From an uncultured Desulfobacteraceae bacterium (GTDB lineage Bacteria > Desulfobacterota > DSM-4660 > Desulfatiglandales > B25-G16), in assembly GCA_964655655.1 (NCBI GenBank), contig CAZZPR010000020.1, forward strand, positions 1 to 37,621: a stretch of DNA of 37,621 nucleotides. The letters are read 5' to 3'. The notes below the pieces were generated by a model. It made no database searches, was not told the origin of the DNA, and saw only the letters and a list, made by a program, of their open reading frames with translations. The translations under genes were made by a program, and so were the position numbers. Below, piece after piece: positions 17,632-37,621 of this stretch (positions are counted from its first letter, which is position 1; the number at the start of each line of letters is the position of its first letter).

Positions 17632-20600
17632 ATGAAAAACAATATTACCGGATCAGTGATGGTGGTTGGCGGGGGAATTACAGGAATGCAGGCCTCTCTG
17701 GATCTTGCCGATTCGGGTTATTATGTTTACCTTGTTGAAGGCTCTTCCTCCATAGGCGGCGTTATGTCGCAGCTGGACAAGACCTTCCCCACTAATGACT
17801 GCGCAATGTGAATAATCTCCCCTAAACTGGTCGAGGTCGGCCGGCACATTAACATTGAATTGATGACCCTCTCAGAGGTGAAGGGCATAAAAGGGGAGGA
17901 GGGTAAATTTGAAGTAAATGTTATCCAACACCCCAGGTATGTGGATACAAACAAATGCATAGCCTGCGGTTTATGTGCGGAAAAATGTCCCAGAAAGGTG
18001 GATGACGAGTATAATCAGTCACTGAATAAAAGAAAGGCCATATATCTCCAATACCCCCAGGCCGTGCCCCTTAAATATGCCATCGACTCAGAAAACTGCA
18101 TCTTTTTTCAAAAGGGTAAATGCAGGGCCTGTGAAAAGTTCTGTCCAAGCGGGGCCATTGACTTCGAGCAAAAGGAAGAAAAACGTACCGTAAACGTAGG
18201 CTCTGTAATAATGTGCCCCGGGTTTGATATATTTGACCCGGCGGTACATGATACGTACGGTTACACCAAGGCACCCAACATCATAACCAGTATTGAATTC
18301 GAAAGGGTTCTCGCTTCCTCCGGACCTTACGGCGGTCACATGGTAAGGCCGTCGGACGGCAGGGAGCCGGAGAAGATTGCATGGCTTCAATGCGTGGGTT
18401 CAAGGGATGTGCACCAGGGTGCCAACTCTTATTGTTCTGCTGTTTGCTGTACCCATGCCATAAAAGAGGCCCTTGTTGCAAAAGATCACAAAAAGGGGGG
18501 TTTGGATACCGCTATATTCTTCATAGATATCAGGGCATCGGGCAAGGATTATGAAAGGTATTACAACCGGGCCAAGGACCAGCAGGGCGTAAGATTCATT
18601 AAATCCAAGATCACCCATGTAAAACATATCCAGGAAACAGGTAACCTGCTCATAAGGTACACCGATGAGCAGGGAAAAAGGGTAGAGGAAGAATTTGATA
18701 TGGTGGTGCTTTCCGTGGGCTTTTTCGTATCAAAAAGGCTGCGGGAATTCGCAGAAAAAATAGGCATAGAACTGGACCATCACAACTTTCCCGAGACAAA
18801 AAGTTTTGCCCCCGTGCAAACCAATAAACCGGGTATCTATATCTCGGGCTGCTTCCACTCTCCCAAGGACATACCTTCTGCTGTAACGGATGCAAGTGCT
18901 GCAGCGGCCAACGCAGGGGGCACCCTTTCGGTTTCCAGGTTTACATTGACCAAAAAAAAGGAATTGCCCCCGGAAATCCCAGCATTGGAAATAAAAGGTG
19001 AGAGGCCACGTATAGGGGTGTTCGTCTGCCAATGCGGAACCAACATTGCAGGTGTTGTGGATGTGCCGGAGGTAGCGAAGTACGCTGAGTCCCTTCCTTT
19101 TGTGGAATATACGGAGCAAAATCTTTTCAGCTGTTCCCAGGACACCCAGGAAACCATAGCCAAGGCCATAAAGGAAAACAAATTAAACAGGGTAGTGGTC
19201 GCATCCTGTACACCCAAGACACACGAGCCATTGTTCCAGGAAACAGCAAGAGAGGCCGGGATCAACAAATACCTATTTGAGATGGCCAACATAAGAAACC
19301 AGTGTTCCTGGGTGCATTCAGAATACCCTGAAGAGGCAACGCAAAAGGCCAAGGATTTGGTTGCAATGGCGATAAGGAAGTCCGCACTTCTTGAGCCGCT
19401 TCAGGAGGCAGAGCTTAACGTAACCCAGGCCGCCCTGGTTATAGGCGGGGGCATAGCAGGAATGAACGCGGCCAAAAACCTGGCCGAACAGGGATACAAG
19501 ACCTGTCTTGTGGAAAAAACCGGCAAGCTGGGAGGAAACGCCCTCAGGCTTTACCGGACCTGGAAAGGAGAAGATATACAGGAAAACCTAAAAGGCCTTA
19601 TTTCAAGCATAGAATCCCAGAAAAACATAGAGGTACTTCTTGACACAGAGATAAAGGAGGTGGAGGGATTTGTAGGCAATTTCATAACAACCCTTGTTAC
19701 CGGTGAGCAAGAAAAAAAGATAGAGCACGGTGTTGTAATTGTAGCCACCGGTGCAAAGGAATTGCTCCCCGAGGAATATCTGTACGGCACTGACTCCCGG
19801 GTGGTTACCTCCCTGGAGCTTGATGATATGTTTATAAATGGGGATAAAAGCCTGGAGGAAACAGGTACCTGCGTATTTCTTCAGTGCGTAGGTTCCCGAA
19901 TACCGGAAAGGCCCTACTGCTCCAGGGTATGCTGCACACATTCCGTGGTAAGCGCACTCAGGTTGAAGGAAGTAAAGCCGGATATGGACATATTTATCCT
20001 TTACCGGGATATGAGGACCTACGGGCTGAGGGAGGAAATCTACAGGGAGGCAAGGGATAAAGGCATAAAGTTCATTCGCTTTGACAATGAAGAGGATATG
20101 AATGTGGAAACCACGGAACAGGGGCTTTCAGTTGCCTTTATTGATTTTACCCTGAGAAGAAAGATGCGGATAAACCCGGATTTACTGGTCTTGGCTTCTG
20201 CCATTGTAAAAAGCGACGGAGAATCTCTGGCAAGACAATTCAAGATATCTTTAAACCAGGATGGCTTCTTCACTGAGGCCCATGTAAAGCTCAGGCCGGT
20301 GGATTTCGCCACGGACGGGGTGTTTTTGTGCGGCCTTGCCCACTCCCCCAAGCCAATTGACGAATCGGTAATCCAGGCACAGGCGGCGGCATCAAGGGCG
20401 GTTACTTTGCTGTCCCGGAAGACCATACACAGCAGCGGTAATGTGGCGGCAGTTGATCCAAGTTTCTGCAGCAGCTGCGGTGTGTGCATTGCCGTGTGCC
20501 CGTTCAGTGCCCCTGAATTCAACCAGGATACGGGCAAGGCGGAGATAAATCCGGTAATATGCAAGGGATGCGGGCTGTGTGTGGCCTCTTGCAGGTCCGG

Positions 20601-20655
20601 TGCCATCCACCTTAACGGGTTTGACGAGAATCAGATAATGTCCATGATAGCTTGA
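17632..20655 (+). CDS. hdrA: HdrA-like FAD/Fe-S flavoprotein (heterodisulfide reductase subunit A family), predicted selenoprotein with an in-frame TGA (Sec) at 17809-17811.
   Basis: The ORF track starts at 17860, but the same frame is open from ATG 17632. It encodes '[62 protein letters not shown]', which is the canonical HdrA N-terminus (…[13 protein letters not shown](I/L)…) with TGA where the second Cys sits. A SECIS-like hairpin 'ctggtcg-AGGT-cggccgg' lies at 17827-17844. Downstream are multiple Cx2Cx2Cx3CP ferredoxin motifs and a second FAD/NAD fold '[12 protein letters not shown]'. Confidence 0.8.
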
Positions 20656-20709
20656 TATGTTTACCGGAATTAGTTGCAATAAATTATGAAAAAATACAGG
20701 GAGAATAAG

Positions 20710-21141
20710 ATGAACGACTGGAGTCCGAGAATCACTGCCTTTCTTTGCAACTGGTGCAGTTATGCGGCGGCTGATCTGGCCGGAATAAACCGGATGCAAT
20801 ACCCCCCTAATATCAGGGCCATCAGGGTACCGTGCTCCGCAAGGGTGGATCCGAAGTTCATTCTGCATGCCTTGAGGAACGGCTCAGACGGAGTATGGGT
20901 TTCCGGGTGACACCCCGGGGAATGTCATTACCTGGAAGGTAATTATTATGCCAGAAGAAAGTTTGCGCTCTTAAAAAATTTCCTGGAGCATTTAGGGATG
21001 GGGCCTCAAAGGCTTACCTTTTCCTGGATTTCATCCTCGGAGGCCGGAAAATTCGCTGAGGTAGCCACGGAGGTAGTCGAAAAAGTAAAGGAGGTTGGCC
21101 CGATAGAAAGACTTGTAAAGAAAAGGGCCGAGGTAGCCTGA
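20710..21141 (+). CDS. mvhD: MvhD-like [2Fe-2S] electron-transfer protein (methyl-viologen-reducing hydrogenase delta subunit family), predicted selenoprotein with TGA (Sec) at 20908-20910.
   Basis: The tracked ORF ends at the TGA (…DGVWVSG*). Reading through gives '[22 protein letters not shown]…', which matches the MvhD 'VSGCHPGDCHY' motif. The N-terminus has 'FLCNWCSY' and 'VPCSARVD'. A hairpin 'attacc-tggaa-ggtaat' lies 17 nt after the TGA. RBS 'agggaga' precedes the ATG at 20710. The stop overlaps the next start (TGATG). Confidence 0.75.
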
Positions 21142-33355: not shown

Positions 33356-34057
33356 CTACCGGTTATCACCCTCCCTTTCGGATTCCATGGTAAATAGGGC
33401 CTCCCGCTCCTTTGCTGATACCTCCGCAGGAAGCTTCTCCCCTTCCGGTTCCCTGAACCGCACGCAGTTTCTTCCCTCCTGCTTGGCCTTGAGAAGAAAA
33501 GAATCGGTACGTTTTATGAAATTCTCTATGGAAAGTCTTTCTGTGTAACTGTATATATCAACACCGAAGCTGGCAGACAAATTTACCCTTCTGTCATTCA
33601 ATTTTACCGGTGACCCCTCCAGGGACGCCCTCAGCCTTTCGGCCGCACGAGCCCCCTGGGGTAAGCGGGTTCCAGGAAGTATAATAGCGAATTCCTCTCC
33701 TCCATACCTGCACGGAATATCAATGTTACGTATGTTTTTGCAGAATATATCGCTGGCCCATTTAAGGGCCTTGTTTCCTGCACCGTGACCATGGGTGTCG
33801 TTTATGTACTTAAAATGATCCAGATCGATCATGATGAGCGCGGTAGGAAGCCCGGTTCTTCTGGTACGCTCCATTTCCATATTCAGGGCCTTCAGGAGGT
33901 ATCTATAGTTAAAAATCCCGGTTAAGCTGTCGGTCTGGGACAGCTCTTTTAATCTGCTAATCTCCTTCTTTAACCGGTCCACTTCATATAAAACCGGACA
34001 ATTTTTATAATCGAAAGGGCAACTTGTTTTTTGGTCGGATGATTTCAAGGGATTCAA
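33356..34057 (-). CDS. GGDEF-domain diguanylate cyclase with an N-terminal coiled coil.
   Basis: 'DSLTGIFNYRYL' and active site 'RYGGEEF' with an RxxD I-site (RNID). The stop lies 4 nt from the MinD-like start. Confidence 0.8.
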   Translation of the reverse strand: MNPLKSSDQKTSCPFDYKNCPVLYEVDRLKKEISRLKELSQTDSLTGIFNYRYLLKALNMEMERTRRTGLPTALIMIDLDHFKYINDTHGHGAGNKALKWASDIFCKNIRNIDIPCRYGGEEFAIILPGTRLPQGARAAERLRASLEGSPVKLNDRRVNLSASFGVDIYSYTERLSIENFIKRTDSFLLKAKQEGRNCVRFREPEGEKLPAEVSAKEREALFTMESEREGDNR

Positions 34058-34274
34058 CGAGTCTCAAGTTAAACATATATTATTCAATCTAACAGACAAA
34101 CGCACATTATTCAACCACCACTTTAGGCGTTGGTAAAGGTCCTTAAAAAATAACGCATCAAGTATCCTGTTAATAAAAGAAAAAATGCCTCCATTTTTTA
34201 GTTTATTTGAGTTAGGAAGGTTTTTCCTGCTTTTTGGTTCTTCATAAGAAGCCCGACTATCAGCAGATACCCGG

Positions 34275-34410
34275 CCACCCAAAGCCCTGCCCATTTCCTC
34301 AAGGCAACATCTACTGGCCTCAAAGCATGTGCCCTCATATTCGGGCTTTAAGGTAATTCATCAAAATCATAAATTTACTCCCAGGTGTAAACCCCGAATA
34401 TTTCGGGCAC
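34275..34410 (-). repeat. Copy C of the composite repeat (IR-left + spacer + core), in reverse orientation, about 280 bp upstream of yedE.
   Basis: The reverse complement reads 'gtgcccgaaatattcgggg…ttaaagcccgaatatgagggcacatgctttgaggccagtagatgttgccttgaggaaatgggcagggctttggg'. That matches copy B in both arms and the core, while the spacer differs. Confidence 0.6.
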
Positions 34411-34627
34411 GGGCAGCCCCGGTGGTATTCCTTTTAAGATATTGCCTCTCGGAAACAGGCGAAGATTTGTACTGTTATGCGGGAATCAATCTGGTTTCTG
34501 GATACTGATCTTTATGAGGGGTTAAAATTATGTATTGAGAACAAACTTAATATCATCGAGCCAATCTGTATGGCCTGAACTATTATCAAAATTAATTTGA
34601 TATTATTTCTCTATTTAATAAATCAAT

Positions 34628-34657
34628 TTGACAAATTAAATATTTAAATACTAATTA
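34628..34657 (+). promoter_or_regulatory. Sigma-70-like promoter TTGACA-N18-TAATTA in the AT-rich region upstream of yedE.
   Basis: Read directly. RBS 'aaggagg' follows 4 nt before the ATG at 34687. Confidence 0.3.
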
Positions 34658-34686
34658 ATTTTATTAAACTCAACAAGGAGGATTGA

Positions 34687-35754
34687 ATGGGTAAGGTATC
34701 CTTTTTTGCCCCGGGCAGGCTAATGATTGTGACCGGTTTACTTTTTGGTGCACTCGCTTCACTGCTAACCGAATGGGGCAATCCTGCCAATATGGGTATC
34801 TGTGTAGCCTGTTTCTATAGAGATATTGCCGGCGCAGTCGGGCTTCACCGGGCAGCTGTTGTCCAGTATATCCGACCTGAAATACTTGGATTTATATTTG
34901 GCGCATTCTTTTCTTCCCTTGGCTTCCGGGAATTTAGGGTAAGGGGCGGCTCCTCCCCTCTAGTCCGCTTTCTGTTGGGCACGTTCTTTATGATCGGCGC
35001 CCTGGTCTTTTTAGGATGCCCCATCCGTGCGCTTCTGAGGCTCGCCGGCGGAGACCTCAACGGTGTTACCGCTCTGGCGGGGGTTGTATTCGGGGCAATC
35101 ATCGGTATACAGTTCCTTAAAAACGGCTTTACACTGGGAAGATCATCAAGTATGCAGGCGTCGATAGGAGGACTTATGCCGTTAATATCCACCGGTTTCC
35201 TCCTGATGGTTATATTCAGGCCGGATTTCCTGTTTTTCAGTAAAAAGGGGCCCGGCTCCTTGCATGCCCCTATCTGGATCGCCCTGTTTACCGGTCTGTT
35301 GTTAGGCTTCCTGGCCCAGAGGACAAGGATGTGTTTTGTCGGGGGATGGAGGGACCTGATGCTGGTAAAGGATTCTTATCTCTTCAAGGGTGTTGCCTGT
35401 TTCTTTATAGGGGCAATAATTCTGAATGCAATACTCGGCGGCCATATCCACTGGGGTTTTACCGGGCAGCCAGTCGCCCATGATAATCATATATGGAACT
35501 TCCTGGGAATGACCCTTGCCGGACTGACCGCTACCCTTTTAGGTGGATGCCCCTTGCGTCAAACCATTTTAACGGGAGAAGGTGACTCAGATGCCGCCTT
35601 GACCGTGCTCGGCCTGGTTGCCGGTGCCGGCATTTCCCATAATTTCAACCTGGCCAGCAGCCCCAAGGGTGTGGGCGAATGGGGTCCGCTGGCGGTTATA
35701 ATAGGCCTTGCATTTTCCATTGCTATAGGGGTTTTAATGAGAGAAAAATCATAA
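34687..35754 (+). CDS. yedE: YedE/YeeE-family membrane protein (sulfur/selenium-compound transporter family).
   Basis: 355 aa polytopic protein with the two conserved Cys-containing re-entrant motifs 'GICVACF' and 'GCPIRALLR' in pseudo-repeat halves. Confidence 0.7.
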   Translation: MGKVSFFAPGRLMIVTGLLFGALASLLTEWGNPANMGICVACFYRDIAGAVGLHRAAVVQYIRPEILGFIFGAFFSSLGFREFRVRGGSSPLVRFLLGTFFMIGALVFLGCPIRALLRLAGGDLNGVTALAGVVFGAIIGIQFLKNGFTLGRSSSMQASIGGLMPLISTGFLLMVIFRPDFLFFSKKGPGSLHAPIWIALFTGLLLGFLAQRTRMCFVGGWRDLMLVKDSYLFKGVACFFIGAIILNAILGGHIHWGFTGQPVAHDNHIWNFLGMTLAGLTATLLGGCPLRQTILTGEGDSDAALTVLGLVAGAGISHNFNLASSPKGVGEWGPLAVIIGLAFSIAIGVLMREKS

Positions 35755-35765
35755 GGAGGCTTGAA

Positions 35766-35978
35766 ATGATAGAGGTCGATGCACGGGGTCTTTCCTGTCC
35801 TATCCCGGTGGTCAGGAGCAAGAAGGCTATCGATGAAAACCCCGGGGATAAGATACTGGTGATAGTAAACGAGGCAACCCAGAGGGATAATGTAACCCGA
35901 CTGGCAAAAAGCAGGGGCTACAACATAAAGGTAGAGGAAGTTCAAGATGAATACCGGCTTGAGCTGAAACCTGCATGA
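35766..35978 (+). CDS. yedF: TusA/SirA-fold sulfur (selenium) carrier protein, YedF-like.
   Basis: 70 aa, 'MIEVDARGLSCPIPVV' CPxP motif. RBS 'aaggagg' 6 nt upstream. The tracked ORF start at 35679 is an upstream extension. Confidence 0.7.
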   Translation: MIEVDARGLSCPIPVVRSKKAIDENPGDKILVIVNEATQRDNVTRLAKSRGYNIKVEEVQDEYRLELKPA

Positions 35979-36583
35979 ATTCGCTAATCACGGATAGCCG
36001 GAAAAGGGCTTCCTATATCAAAGGAGATATTAAACCTATGCTTTTTCTTAAAAGAAAAAAATCATACTCCGCCGATGGTCAAGGCCTGATTCTGTTTGAC
36101 CAAGTACCGGATGCGATGAAGGCAGAGAGATGCCTCAAGGAATCCGGTTACAAGGTCAAGCTGGTAGCGCCTCCCCCTGAAATACGTAAAGGTTGTGACC
36201 TTGCCGTACAGATAAATCTGGTGGAACAGCCCGGTATCGATAGGGTGCTAACCCAAAAGGGTGCTGACTTCATTGAAATAGTCCACGCGGGCGCAAATGG
36301 GGCTGAAATACTGGATATCGTAAAAGTAAAGGATTTCGGAAATGCTACCATGGTAAAGGCGGGAAATATGAAGCTGTCGTTTGACAATAAAACCGGAGTT
36401 GTTCTCAACACCTCGGGAGGAGGGTGCCCGGATATACCTTATCTTCATGCGGAAATGTTAAATAAAAAACTGACCGAGGCCCCAAGACCCAGGCAAATCG
36501 GCTTTACCCTCTGCGCCCTTATGCTGGATAGGGCCCTGGAAGAATGCCTGGAAATCTGGAAAGGGGGAAACCGAAAATGTTGA
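35975..36583 (+). CDS. DUF3343-like (putative Se/S carrier) N-terminal domain followed by an uncharacterised C-terminal domain.
   Basis: 'LILFDQVPDAMKAERCLKESGYKVKLVAPPPEIRKGCDLAVQI' fits the small DUF3343 fold, recalled from memory. The C-terminal 100 aa contain 'SGGGCPD'. The start is ambiguous between 35975 and 36038. Confidence 0.45.
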   Translation: MNSLITDSRKRASYIKGDIKPMLFLKRKKSYSADGQGLILFDQVPDAMKAERCLKESGYKVKLVAPPPEIRKGCDLAVQINLVEQPGIDRVLTQKGADFIEIVHAGANGAEILDIVKVKDFGNATMVKAGNMKLSFDNKTGVVLNTSGGGCPDIPYLHAEMLNKKLTEAPRPRQIGFTLCALMLDRALEECLEIWKGGNRKC

Positions 36584-37479
36584 TCCTTGCGGGCACGGTC
36601 CCTATAGACAAGTTTCCTTTGACCTTCGGAAGACTCGAACCCGAGTCTGGGATTATCTCCGTAAATGGGCTTAATATACCCTGCACTCAGGGGATCGGGG
36701 CCATGATTGCATCCGCGCTGGCCACCACTAAATATATGGGGCTGGAGCCACCGAACGCACTTGTCGCCGGTGATATAGGCAAAGGGGACGGCACCAGGGC
36801 AATCTATAATTACCTTATTCGTGAGGCGCCGGGAATCTTTTCCAAGCCCTCTCCTTTCCTTGCCAATACTCTGGTTCTGCATTACTGCCTTCCGGATATG
36901 GCATTAATAAAGGATTTGTGTAAATCCCTTGAAAGATGCCCTCAAAGGCCTATTTCCATTGCAGATGCATCATCTATGTACGGTGCCAAAGCCGCAGGAC
37001 TAGCCCGGATGTTTGACGTGTTTACCCCTGACCTTACGGAAATTGCCTTTTTAGCTGACTCAGAGGCCATACATCCTGCCTACATCAATAAACATCTTTT
37101 TAATTCCAGCTCCTCCGAAGTGCCTGAATTGATTTCAAACGCCTACAGAAATAATAACGCAGCCAGTGTCCTGTTGATAAAAGGAGAGGTGGACTATATA
37201 GCCAAGGAAGGGAAAATTCTGGATACAGTCTCCGAGCCCGACGTACCAGAGCTGGAAGCCATTGGAGGTACCGGTGATACCATTACCGGCATGGTATCCG
37301 CCTTTTGTTATGCCGGGCTGGAACTCAGCGAGGCCGCCATTATTGCAGCCAGGTCAAACCGCACGGCCGCCAAATTCGCCGATCCTTCTCTTGCCACCAG
37401 GATATGGGAGATAATTGATCATTTTCCTTTGGTGTTCAGGGAAAACCTTTGCAACTGGAGCGGCATATGCGTACGGTAA
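36577..37479 (+). CDS. Ribokinase-fold protein related to the YjeF-C / NAD(P)H-hydrate-dehydratase and carbohydrate-kinase family.
   Basis: 'LLIKGEVDYI…' followed by the anion-hole 'IGGTGDTITGMVSAF'. Start re-called at ATG 36577 because RBS 'aaggggg' lies upstream. Confidence 0.4.
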   Translation: MLILAGTVPIDKFPLTFGRLEPESGIISVNGLNIPCTQGIGAMIASALATTKYMGLEPPNALVAGDIGKGDGTRAIYNYLIREAPGIFSKPSPFLANTLVLHYCLPDMALIKDLCKSLERCPQRPISIADASSMYGAKAAGLARMFDVFTPDLTEIAFLADSEAIHPAYINKHLFNSSSSEVPELISNAYRNNNAASVLLIKGEVDYIAKEGKILDTVSEPDVPELEAIGGTGDTITGMVSAFCYAGLELSEAAIIAARSNRTAAKFADPSLATRIWEIIDHFPLVFRENLCNWSGICVR

Positions 37480-37621
37480 TTCCTGTCCCTGAAGGGCTTA
37501 CAAAAAAGAGGCAGAGTATTAAGAAATAACGGATTTAGCTATGTCGGAATCATAAGTTTTTCTTCAAGCTTATCTTCTACAGTAAATCGGCCACCGAAAA
37601 ATGAAAGCCTTTGTATATGCG

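Follow-up and report, generated by a model that had tools for sequence, protein, structure and literature searches.

Four open reading frames lie on the forward strand towards the 3' end of the window (the whole 37,621-nt stretch of DNA analysed here), as an earlier sequence-only reading had described. Together with the region preceding them, they are as follows (coordinates, strand, description):

34058–34686, no strand assigned: leader/intergenic region 5' of yedE, 629 nt, AT-rich (GC ~0.40)
34687–35754, + strand: YedE-family membrane protein, putative selenium importer, 355 aa
35766–35978, + strand: TusA-fold (SirA-like) protein, 70 aa, PF01206
36038–36583, + strand: gene 3, two-domain carrier (DUF3343 + DUF8182), 181 aa; an alternative start at 35975 gives 202 aa
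36577–37479, + strand: gene 4, ribokinase-superfamily YjeF_C-like enzyme, 300 aa, homologue-supported start

All four domain assignments exceeded Pfam gathering scores (Sulf_transp 50.3 bits, TusA 64.7 bits, Se_S_carrier/DUF3343 57.4 bits and Carb_kinase 38.2 bits). The stop codon of yedE and the start of the TusA-like gene are separated by 11 nt, and the latter is preceded by GGAGG 6 nt 5' of its ATG (TAAGGAGGCTTGAAATG). The start of gene 4 at 36577 overlaps the stop of gene 3 by 7 nt (ATGTTGA), exactly as had been read previously. For gene 3, the longest open reading frame (35975–36583) does begin with an ATG overlapping the TusA stop (ATGA), but the start is more likely to be at 36038, because 69 homologues begin after the first 21 residues of the 202-aa frame and the identical protein was called independently with 181 aa (P0121). 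The sequence AGGAG was found 11 nt 5' of this start.

A promoter is presumably located in the leader at 34058–34686. Scanning of 34000–37621 for promoters and terminators was uninformative because the matches did not exceed those in shuffled sequence. No Rfam family matched the window at gathering score, and a relaxed search of the yedE leader (E ≤ 1) returned no credible riboswitch or other element, its sole match being a sub-threshold chance hit to CRISPR-DR. No sel gene or LysR regulator was seen among the ORFs examined (24 window ORFs by Pfam and the two ORFs upstream of yedE by reading, some smaller ORFs excepted), and none adjoins the cluster up to the end of the contig, 142 nt past gene 4; selD is absent from this contig.

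Whether the transporter belongs with selenium-associated YedE proteins or with thiosulfate importers had been put forward as a check, and the model scores favoured the former by a wide margin. YedE matched the seleno_YedE equivalog TIGR04112 with 477.9 bits (cut-off 200, E = 1.7e-143, model positions 2–337 of 337), and its matches to the TsuA/YeeE models were partial and far below cut-off (NF052577, 58.1 versus 400 bits; NF041049, 24.9 versus 645 bits). The protein is polytopic, with at least seven strongly hydrophobic 19-residue segments in a crude hydropathy scan, and carries the cysteine motifs GICVAC, LGCPIR, RMCFVGG and GGCPLR, conserved cysteines being present in each of its two Sulf_transp-like halves. 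The SelD-dependent selenium trait expected of organisms with a TIGR04112 protein is also in evidence, with related loci adjoining selD and with in-frame TGA codons in HdrA (17632–20655; TGA at 17809, context NDCAM*IISPK) and MvhD (20686–21141; TGA at 20908, context SG*HPGECHY), so that the host genome was rightly described earlier as Sec-decoding. On this sequence evidence, YedE is a putative selenium transporter. In Methanococcus maripaludis, deletion of yedE gave no clear selenium-transport phenotype (PMC11097638).

The 70-aa protein encoded next had been called YedF, an assignment that did not hold. Its PF01206 match is secure (64.7 bits, cut-off 28.6), with GLSCPIP at residues 8–14 and the CPxP cysteine at position 11 (codon 35796–35798). 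It fell short, however, of both YedF equivalogs, namely TIGR03527 (57 versus 110 bits, covering positions 1–61 of a 194-position model) and the E. coli-type NF008242 (20.8 versus 79 bits), and the second, DsrE-like domain is absent. The TsuB/YeeD model NF041048 was missed as well (14.3 versus 147.5 bits). It is therefore described here as a TusA-family, or ‘SirA-like’, protein.

Gene 3 had been labelled DUF3343-like, which is correct for its N-terminal domain (~36083–36283; PF11823, 57.4 bits, cut-off 25) and incomplete for the protein as a whole, since a second domain, DUF8182, occupies the C-terminal part (~36284–36580). The precomputed annotation of P0121 likewise comprises PF11823 and PF26554.1 (DUF8182). 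Cysteines are found at position 53 in the DUF3343 domain (codon 36194–36196) and, within DUF8182, at position 130 in the motif GGGCPDIP (36425–36427) and position 159 in the motif TLC (36512–36514); the RKGCDLA cysteine of DUF3343 is invariant in our alignment (A2). Searching PDB with the carrier sequence yielded no credible match.

Five paralogues from Dehalococcoidia have an in-frame TGA exactly where Cys130 of DUF8182 stands (GGG-TGA-PDIP), and their reading frame is still conserved past this codon. A hairpin was found 16 nt 3' of the TGA, and the orthologue in locus L061 has cysteine at the same position. These sequence features indicate that the UGA is read as selenocysteine and that the GGGCPDIP position is a Sec/Cys site. 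No convincing in-frame TGA was found in related loci at the cysteines of TusA CPxP, DUF3343, YedE or gene 4.

With gene 4 as the seed, a scan of genomes recovered 80 loci, which represent the closest relatives of the query. The four-gene set recurs across approximately 80 loci in at least ten phyla, with members in Chloroflexota, Thermodesulfobacteriota/Syntrophales, Bacillota, Actinomycetota, Calditrichota, Cyanobacteria, Gammaproteobacteria, Planctomycetota, Acidobacteriota and Elusimicrobiota, and such an arrangement is not due to chance. Gene 3 lay immediately 5' of gene 4 in all of the loci counted (75/75), with the gene 3 stop and gene 4 start overlapping or no more than 4 nt apart in 70 of 79. 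YedE was upstream in 60/65 loci and TusA adjacent in 53/63. Look-ups centred on gene 3 instead found an adjoining Carb_kinase gene every time; genes 3 and 4 are thus an obligate pair.

Rosetta-stone fusions tie all four proteins together. YedE is fused to gene 3 in Nostoc, Calothrix and one gammaproteobacterial MAG, gene 3 to gene 4 in five distinct 50%-identity clusters within YedE-TusA-fusion loci, and gene 4 to TusA in three loci (L029, L049 and L067). The suggestion that gene 4 could be a new component of the system is borne out by its unbroken adjacency to gene 3 and by its fusions to gene 3 and to TusA. A ‘short’ form lacking both DUF8182 and gene 4 occurs beside selA and selB in Pusillibacter, and gene 4 is therefore not universally required. 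Taken as a whole, the four genes in the window probably constitute a single operon encoding the long form of a YedE-type system for selenium acquisition and hand-off.

Comparative genomics has previously tied YedE, SirA-like and DUF3343 proteins to SelD (PMC5322559). Among the loci with enough flanking sequence, selD was found within ~5 kb in 22 of 56 (~40%), adjacency being missing in most. Overall, some 24 loci have selD as a neighbour of the module, and in 24 loci selD had an in-frame TGA at its G-U-x-x-K site. Further neighbours were selB (7–9 loci), selA (5 loci) and a divergently transcribed LysR gene (23 loci). In several phyla the module stands on the same strand and immediately 5' of selD-selA-selB, and one locus (L089) encodes GrdA-...-YedE-gene3-gene4-TusA-SelD-SelA-SelB on a single strand. 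Peptoclostridium acidaminophilum has the same gene order as the window (yedE-TusA-DUF3343-‘NAD(P)H-hydrate dehydratase’), and selD comes next in convergent orientation; its carrier and gene 4 proteins are EAL2_RS12805 and RS12810. A methyltransferase gene was also observed near some related loci.

The link to sel genes expected from the sequence alone was thus recovered as physical linkage of related loci to Sec-type selD, selA, selB and divergent LysR, and this linkage, jointly with the TIGR04112 identity of the transporter, supports selenium supply as the function of the locus. We consider it likely, with reasonable confidence, that this is a selenium module of which genes 3 and 4 are integral parts.

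Two other functions of the module were weighed, and both appear improbable. The locus might instead be a sulfur system, in which YeeE/YeeD (TsuA/TsuB)-type uptake of thiosulfate or zero-valent sulfur is combined with generic persulfide trafficking, the association with selenium being incidental. YedE is indeed homologous to TsuA through Pfam Sulf_transp and matches TsuA models weakly, and the host has genes of a sulfur-type energy metabolism (HdrA/MvhD). TusA and DUF3343 proteins serve sulfur too, DUF3343 proteins being present also in organisms lacking SelD, and a selenium-specific subfamily was not found among them (PMC5322559). However, the TsuA/TsuB cut-offs were missed (58 versus 400, 25 versus 645 and 14 versus 147.5 bits) while that of the selenium YedE was passed (478 versus 200), related loci are contiguous with Sec-type selD, selA and selB, and a Sec variant of the carrier exists.

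Detoxification, storage or export of selenium (for instance, sequestration of selenide or Se(0)), rather than supply to SelD, was judged similarly improbable. Cysteine-rich carriers and a membrane channel could operate in either direction, the methyltransferase near some loci would suit such a role, and a detoxifying role for YedF was considered by Lin et al. (PMC5322559). Against this, the module is found directly upstream of, and co-oriented with, selD-selA-selB in several phyla. The habitats of these module-bearing organisms are moreover selenium-scarce. In M. maripaludis, yedE transcripts increase under selenium starvation (PMC11097638), which also speaks for supply.

Homologues of gene 4 are named NAD(P)H-hydrate dehydratase in RefSeq, which raises a third alternative, that gene 4 is a housekeeping NAD(P)HX dehydratase (Nnr/YjeF_C) neighbouring selenium genes by chance. 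The nearest structures are indeed YjeF_C dehydratases, and the protein passes PF01256 (Carb_kinase; 38.2 bits, cut-off 27). It has the three-layer alpha/beta organisation of the ribokinase-like fold, including the GxGD anion-hole motif towards its C-terminal end (GGTGD, 37264–37278), and retains the nucleotide/anion-hole motifs of this fold (GGTGD, TPDxxE and KGxxD). Nevertheless, the Nnr/YjeF_C model TIGR00196 was missed by far (27.1 bits versus 129.85, residues 159–278 only), and an hhalign comparison with E. coli Nnr aligned just 55 columns with a probability of 11.5%. Judging from these alignments, gene 4 resembles YjeF_C only in the fold and in the motifs of the nucleotide site, the latter making nucleotide-dependent phosphoryl transfer a putative activity of gene 4. 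The family is small and discrete (242 clusters among 1.84 billion representatives), whereas Nnr is ubiquitous, and has motifs of its own (HYxxP and ADxxAxHPxY). With the invariant adjacency to gene 3, translational coupling and fusions to carrier and TusA added, a housekeeping role is very improbable.

The C-terminal tail of gene 4, LCxWSGxC (Cys292 at 37450–37452 and Cys298 at 37468–37470), is clade-specific. It was considered as a catalytic or selenium-binding feature of the family and rejected, being missing from the P. acidaminophilum, cyanobacterial, planctomycete and paralogous members.

Least credible of all is a YTD-type (YedE-TusA-DsrE) sulfur-disproportionation cluster, for even though YedE-like and TusA genes are adjacent here in a probable sulfur-cycling anaerobe and YTD clusters also include two uncharacterised proteins (PMC8780430), a DsrE-family gene is absent, none of the four proteins matches DsrE, the transporter is of the TIGR04112 type, and the neighbours in related loci are sel rather than dsr genes, with no YTD-like neighbour cluster seen there.

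Returning to selenium supply as the preferred reading, the scheme that we infer, including the direction of selenium flow, the use of a nucleotide and the reaction itself, would run as follows. YedE would import selenium in some chemical form. On the cytoplasmic side, the TusA-fold protein, as the presumed first acceptor there, would bind it through its CPxP cysteine, in analogy to YeeD/TsuB with YeeE/TsuA, a system in which the TusA-fold protein is required on that side (PMC11582611). Selenium would then pass to the DUF3343 + DUF8182 carrier, whose reactive site may be the cysteine in the glycine-rich GGGCPDIP loop. The gene 4 protein, forming a fixed unit with the carrier, would spend a nucleotide (ATP or ADP) on the carrier-bound selenium, and reduced selenium would finally be handed to selenophosphate synthetase (SelD).

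The likeliest chemistry for gene 4 may be of YjeF_C type, that is, phosphorylation and elimination of an Se-OH/oxyanion adduct, or some other activation of this adduct; phosphorylation followed by elimination, taken specifically, is nonetheless doubtful. More broadly, and as a tentative proposal to which we give somewhat less than even weight, the carrier and its YjeF_C-like partner might perform a previously unrecognised nucleotide-driven step of selenium assimilation between YedE and SelD, by phosphoryl transfer to, or phosphate-assisted elimination from, selenium at GGG(C/U)PDIP. In its extreme version, this step would use the carrier to make an activated Se-P species, by which cells having no SelD other than a selenoprotein form could be primed. 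If the proposal is true, a corollary would be that DUF8182 represents a new selenoprotein family in Dehalococcoidia.

To use selenium, bacteria must take up traces of it, distinguish it from sulfur present in vast excess and bring it to selenophosphate synthetase, yet neither a dedicated transporter nor a delivery pathway for selenium has been proven (PMC11097638). As the present locus shows, the YedE system that had been proposed also exists in a widespread form with four proteins, in which a Sec/Cys-type carrier and an enzyme with an ATP-site fold are added. No description of gene 4 or of DUF8182 was found in the literature searched, and the two genes look like an undescribed step of selenium acquisition because they are always together and often beside the selenocysteine machinery. 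That they are genetically inseparable and often co-operonic with selD, selA and selB points to a processing step that requires energy and is missing from current models. The module is present in cultured organisms (P. acidaminophilum, Moorella and Dethiobacter), and the idea is therefore directly testable. The analysis also corrects the systematic misnaming of the gene 4 enzyme in databases as NAD(P)H-hydrate dehydratase.

Among known systems, YeeE/YeeD (TsuA/TsuB) resembles the present locus in that its membrane protein is homologous and likewise has conserved cysteines, and a cysteine-bearing TusA-fold protein comes next. Fusions of transporter and carrier occur in YeeE-YeeD, to which the YedE+gene 3 fusions are comparable. 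We know of no DUF3343/DUF8182 carrier or kinase-fold partner in TsuAB, and the present proteins differ in falling below the TsuA/TsuB equivalog models and in having selenium genes as genomic partners. Compared with the ADP/ATP-dependent NAD(P)HX dehydratases of the YjeF_C/Nnr group (TM0922 and B. subtilis YxkO), gene 4 shows only 15–18% identity and belongs to a distinct family that is always paired with a protein carrier.

In Campylobacter jejuni, formate dehydrogenase activity that depends on selenium requires FdhT/FdhU, homologues of YedE/YedF (Shaw et al. 2012 and Pryjma et al. 2012, as cited in PMC5322559 and PMC4178425). As far as these secondary accounts go, the likeness to the window lies in a YedE-type protein acting with a small SirA/TusA-like partner in selenoprotein biogenesis; what they describe is a two-gene system, with no DUF3343/DUF8182 carrier or kinase-fold gene reported in them. 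As represented there, FdhT/FdhU provides the main, suggestive, experimental support for a selenium role of the YedE family. Closest to the present locus is the published YedE/SirA-like (YedF)/DUF3343 cluster (Lin et al. 2015, PMC5322559), with which it has in common the transporter family, the TusA-fold partner, DUF3343 and the association with selD, selA, selB and LysR. The published short form (e.g. in Pusillibacter and Slackia) is without DUF8182 and gene 4, whereas the form described here extends that model by DUF8182 with its Sec/Cys site and by an obligate ribokinase-fold fourth member.

The cluster comprises the following features:

34687-37479, + strand, cluster of four co-directional ORFs
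34687-35754, + strand, gene 1 (YedE), 355 aa, stop TAA
35766-35978, + strand, gene 2 (TusA-fold protein), 70 aa, first residues MIEVDARGLSCPIP
start 35975, + strand, gene 3 (carrier), longest ORF, ATG overlapping the gene 2 stop; the NCBI call for the same sequence is 202 aa
start 36577, + strand, gene 4 (ribokinase-fold protein), 300 aa, start as in the identical database protein P0001

The stop of gene 1 and the ATG of gene 2 are separated by 11 nt containing GGAGG, and the start of gene 4 shares 7 nt with the stop of gene 3, an overlap already reported in the sequence-only reading. The four-gene layout given there was correct except for the probable start of gene 3. The ATG of the longest gene 3 ORF does overlap the gene 2 stop as described, but a start at 36038, with AGGAG 11 nt 5′ of it, is likelier than 35975, since the first 21 residues of the longest ORF are absent from 69 homologues and an independent gene call for the identical sequence (database protein P0121) is 181 aa long.

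Gene 1 scored 477.9 bits, covering the entire model, against the NCBIfam equivalog TIGR04112 ('YedE family putative selenium transporter', cut-off 200 bits), whereas the pair of TsuA models for thiosulfate transporters gave 58 and 25 bits (cut-offs 400 and 645 bits). This settled the proposed comparison of selenium-type YedE with TsuA in favour of the former. Gene 2, earlier read as a TusA-like YedF, has the TusA fold (PF01206, 64.7 bits) but fell below the YedF models, reaching 57 bits against a cut-off of 110 for TIGR03527, where only the first 61 of 194 positions were covered, and 20.8 against 79 bits for E. coli-type YedF. TsuB/YeeD was likewise rejected (14 versus 147.5 bits). Gene 2 corresponds to the 'SirA-like' gene beside YedE in Lin et al. 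(PMC5322559).

With a single genome taken for each species, scanning confirmed 392 gene 4 relatives. The best 80 loci were carried forward, and neighbours were counted by searching their six-frame ORFs with the four window proteins. These 80 loci were mostly from Dehalococcoidia, the other taxa being Thermodesulfobacteriota/Syntrophales, Moorella, Dethiobacter, Syntrophomonas, other Bacillota, Actinomycetota, Calditrichaceae, a gammaproteobacterial MAG, Nostoc, Calothrix, Planctomycetia, Acidobacteria and Elusimicrobia. Among the best 80 of 392, a gene 3 homologue lay directly 5′ of gene 4 in all 75 loci that had sufficient sequence, a strong YedE match lay upstream of gene 4 in 60 of 65, and a TusA gene lay just 3′ of gene 4 in 50 of 63 and 5′ of it in three more. 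Gene 3-centred look-ups of homologues agreed with this picture. On gene order, genes 3 and 4 are an obligate pair within a conserved module, and gene 4, suggested earlier as a possible new component, has no published description in the literature examined. As the gene 3 stop and gene 4 start overlapped or were ≤4 nt apart in 70 of 79 loci (most commonly as ATGA), the arrangement points to translational coupling. The window order, YedE-TusA-gene 3-gene 4, is a minority order, shared with a Calditrichaceae MAG (L006), two further related loci (L085, L086) and cultured Peptoclostridium acidaminophilum.

Natural fusions of three kinds join all four proteins. In Nostoc FACHB-152, Calothrix NIES-2100 and a gammaproteobacterial MAG, YedE and gene 3 share one ORF, with Sulf_transp and Se_S_carrier both recognised by Pfam in one such 543-aa protein; five distinct clusters (P0259, P0263, P0266, P0273 and P0277), located in YedE-TusA-fusion loci, have genes 3 and 4 joined into one polypeptide of 514-588 aa; and gene 4 is fused to TusA in three loci (L029, L049 and L067). 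The cyanobacterial form (Calothrix sp. NIES-2100, L058:8349-14362; Nostoc sp. FACHB-152, L047:8367-11543) runs from the YedE-carrier fusion through gene 4 to a TPR protein of 181 aa that is conserved. TusA is absent from both loci, and in Calothrix a xanthine-dehydrogenase-family molybdenum hydroxylase is next in line. This is a hint of a tie to the trait of selenium-dependent molybdenum hydroxylases instead of Sec. A partial YedE homologue (65% of the query, labelled hypothetical protein) on Nostoc carneum NIES-2107 plasmid3 (L084, 214460-215263) may be a remnant, the other module genes being absent.

Recurring neighbours were identified in the best 80 of 392 loci by de novo clustering followed by Pfam scans. 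A divergent LysR regulator stood upstream of the module in 23 loci, SelB was near it in 7-9 and SelA in 5, with class-V aminotransferase, pyridine-nucleotide disulfide oxidoreductase and molybdopterin oxidoreductases as occasional neighbours. Of the 56 loci whose flanks were long enough, 22 had a phmmer match to SelD, an AIRS/AIRS_C protein, directly 3′ of the module and in its orientation, so that selD adjacency holds in only ~40% of related loci. In 24 loci SelD is itself a selenoprotein, because its reading frame has an in-frame TGA at a G-U-(A/G)-x-K site; automatic ORF calls shorten such genes to ~316 aa (examples at L003:11205, L056:11335 and L068:8552). Locus L089 carries GrdA-Fe-ADH-YedE-gene 3-gene 4-TusA-SelD-SelA-SelB on one strand, with GrdA split at the Sec codon. 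Several loci also have a SAM-dependent methyltransferase (Methyltransf_31/UbiE-like) next to the divergent LysR or 5′ of the module (L032:6526-7188, L091:3078-3623), which may be relevant to selenium methylation.

P. acidaminophilum is a classical selenium organism. In the RefSeq genome of strain DSM 3953 the four genes stand in window order (yedE, TusA family, a 181-aa DUF3343 domain protein and 'NAD(P)H-hydrate dehydratase'), and a convergent selD comes next. No sel gene adjoins the cluster in the window because the contig, all of which the window covers, ends 142 nt past gene 4 (37480-37621). That this genome decodes Sec, as first read, was confirmed by in-frame TGA codons at conserved cysteine positions of an HdrA-like gene (17632-20655, TGA at 17809, NDCAM*IISPK) and an MvhD-like gene (20686-21141, TGA at 20908, SG*HPGECHY). 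Together with the TIGR04112 result, the joining of related loci to selD, selA and selB supports the original selenium reading of the window cluster, as a module whose every step is putative.

Gene 3 combines an N-terminal DUF3343/Se_S_carrier domain (57.4 bits) with a C-terminal DUF8182 (PF26554, protein-database annotation), and 20 homologues share invariant Cys53 (RKGCDLA), Cys130 (SGGGCPDIP) and Cys159 (FTLCALM). Several Dehalococcoidia loci contain a second, paralogous set of YedF-like protein, carrier, gene 4 paralogue and split YedE-like transporter. This divergent whole-module copy adjoins the first at L019:11122-14426, and similarly in L021, L053, L061 and L072; its YedF-like protein is full-length (~197 aa), its gene 4 paralogue has ~290 aa (~210 bits), and its transporter is encoded by two half-size genes. 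In five loci the carrier paralogue has a TGA exactly at the GGGCPDIP cysteine:

L019:11976-12530, carrier paralogue, TGA at L019:12369
L021:13255-13800, carrier paralogue, TGA at L021:13636
L053:11932-12480, carrier paralogue, TGA at L053:12316
L057:3605-4170, carrier paralogue, TGA at L057:4040
L072:1675-2230, carrier paralogue, TGA at L072:2050

Past the TGA the frame stays open across ~50 conserved residues (PKPRELGKTICAYT...) until it meets a genuine stop, and the L061 orthologue has Cys at the same position. A hairpin, GGCUC-GGUCU-GAGCC, lies 16 nt 3′ of the UGA and matches expectation for a bacterial SECIS, the five sequences being closely related, with little covariation. These paralogous DUF3343-DUF8182 carriers are likely a new selenoprotein family; a 2026 review of prokaryotic selenoproteins (PMC13188914) does not mention DUF3343, PF11823 or PF26554. 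Replacement of the equivalent cysteine by TGA marks Cys130 of the window carrier as its predicted reactive centre.

The YjeF-C-like kinase fold first assigned to gene 4 holds, yet the protein does not belong to Nnr: solved proteins matched only marginally (E 2e-4 for ThiM and 0.1 for Nnr), and hhalign against E. coli Nnr aligned only the KG...GGxGD segment (probability 11.5%). Its family is abundant in metagenomes (1499 matches) and compact, with 242 clusters (50% identity) at E≤1e-3 and 53 at E≤1e-30 among 1.84 billion representatives; a ubiquitous family such as Nnr would give quite another picture. The names in RefSeq, JGI and NCBI, 'NAD(P)H-hydrate dehydratase', 'sugar kinase' and 'phosphomethylpyrimidine kinase' (for instance P. 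acidaminophilum L083, NZ_CP007453.1 385093-385968, EAL2_RS12810), are probably systematic over-annotation, since the curated Nnr model is not matched.

Across the main family, paralogues, cyanobacterial members and P. acidaminophilum, the motifs GDxGxGxG, HYxxP, ADA, a lysine, TPDxxE, ADxxAxHPxY, KxxxD, ExIGGTGDxxTG and NR were universal, including the ribokinase-superfamily nucleotide and anion-hole motifs (GGTGD aligning with ThiM TGTGD), and no universal cysteine was found. An LCxWSGxC tail was discarded as a family feature, being confined to the window's clade. With these motifs kept and no universal cysteine, gene 4 has the look of an active enzyme that depends on a nucleotide, and not of a carrier for selenium. 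Most plausibly, its substrate is presented by the DUF8182 loop of the partner to which it is fused or coupled. Its nearest relatives phosphorylate a hydroxyl and then eliminate the phosphate; by analogy, gene 4 could activate a carrier-bound selenium oxy-adduct, or carrier-bound selenium in some other way, and we infer that reduced selenium would then be free to move on to SelD.

Searches of the literature for DUF8182, DUF3343 and hydrate dehydratase with YedE found no description of the four-gene form and no mention of DUF8182, and the DUF3343 literature found never mentions the gene 4 partner; neither gene 3 nor gene 4 has a model of its own in NCBIfam release 20. As far as the literature and curated family libraries examined show, the four-gene variant is undescribed. 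For a selenium role of the family, the experimental evidence is from C. jejuni fdhTU, as cited in PMC5322559 and PMC4178425. Deleting yedE in Methanococcus maripaludis produced no clear phenotype, although selenium starvation raised its transcript 5.3 log2-fold (PMC11097638). Kayrouz et al. list yedF and duf3343 among the genes most often overlapping selD. Lin et al. 2015 (PMC5322559) proposed YedE as transporter, YedF as redox protein and DUF3343 as chaperone, without mentioning the kinase-fold gene; their Slackia cluster resembles a short form in Pusillibacter faecalis, yedE-TusA-DUF3343-selA-selB, in which DUF3343 (79 aa) lacks DUF8182 and gene 4 is missing. Since this short form lacks both, DUF8182 and gene 4 appear to be a joint extension of the three-gene cluster published earlier. 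The YedE-TusA-DUF3343 core has been described before; on sequence evidence, what is new here is DUF8182 with its putative Sec/Cys site and the obligate YjeF_C-like partner.
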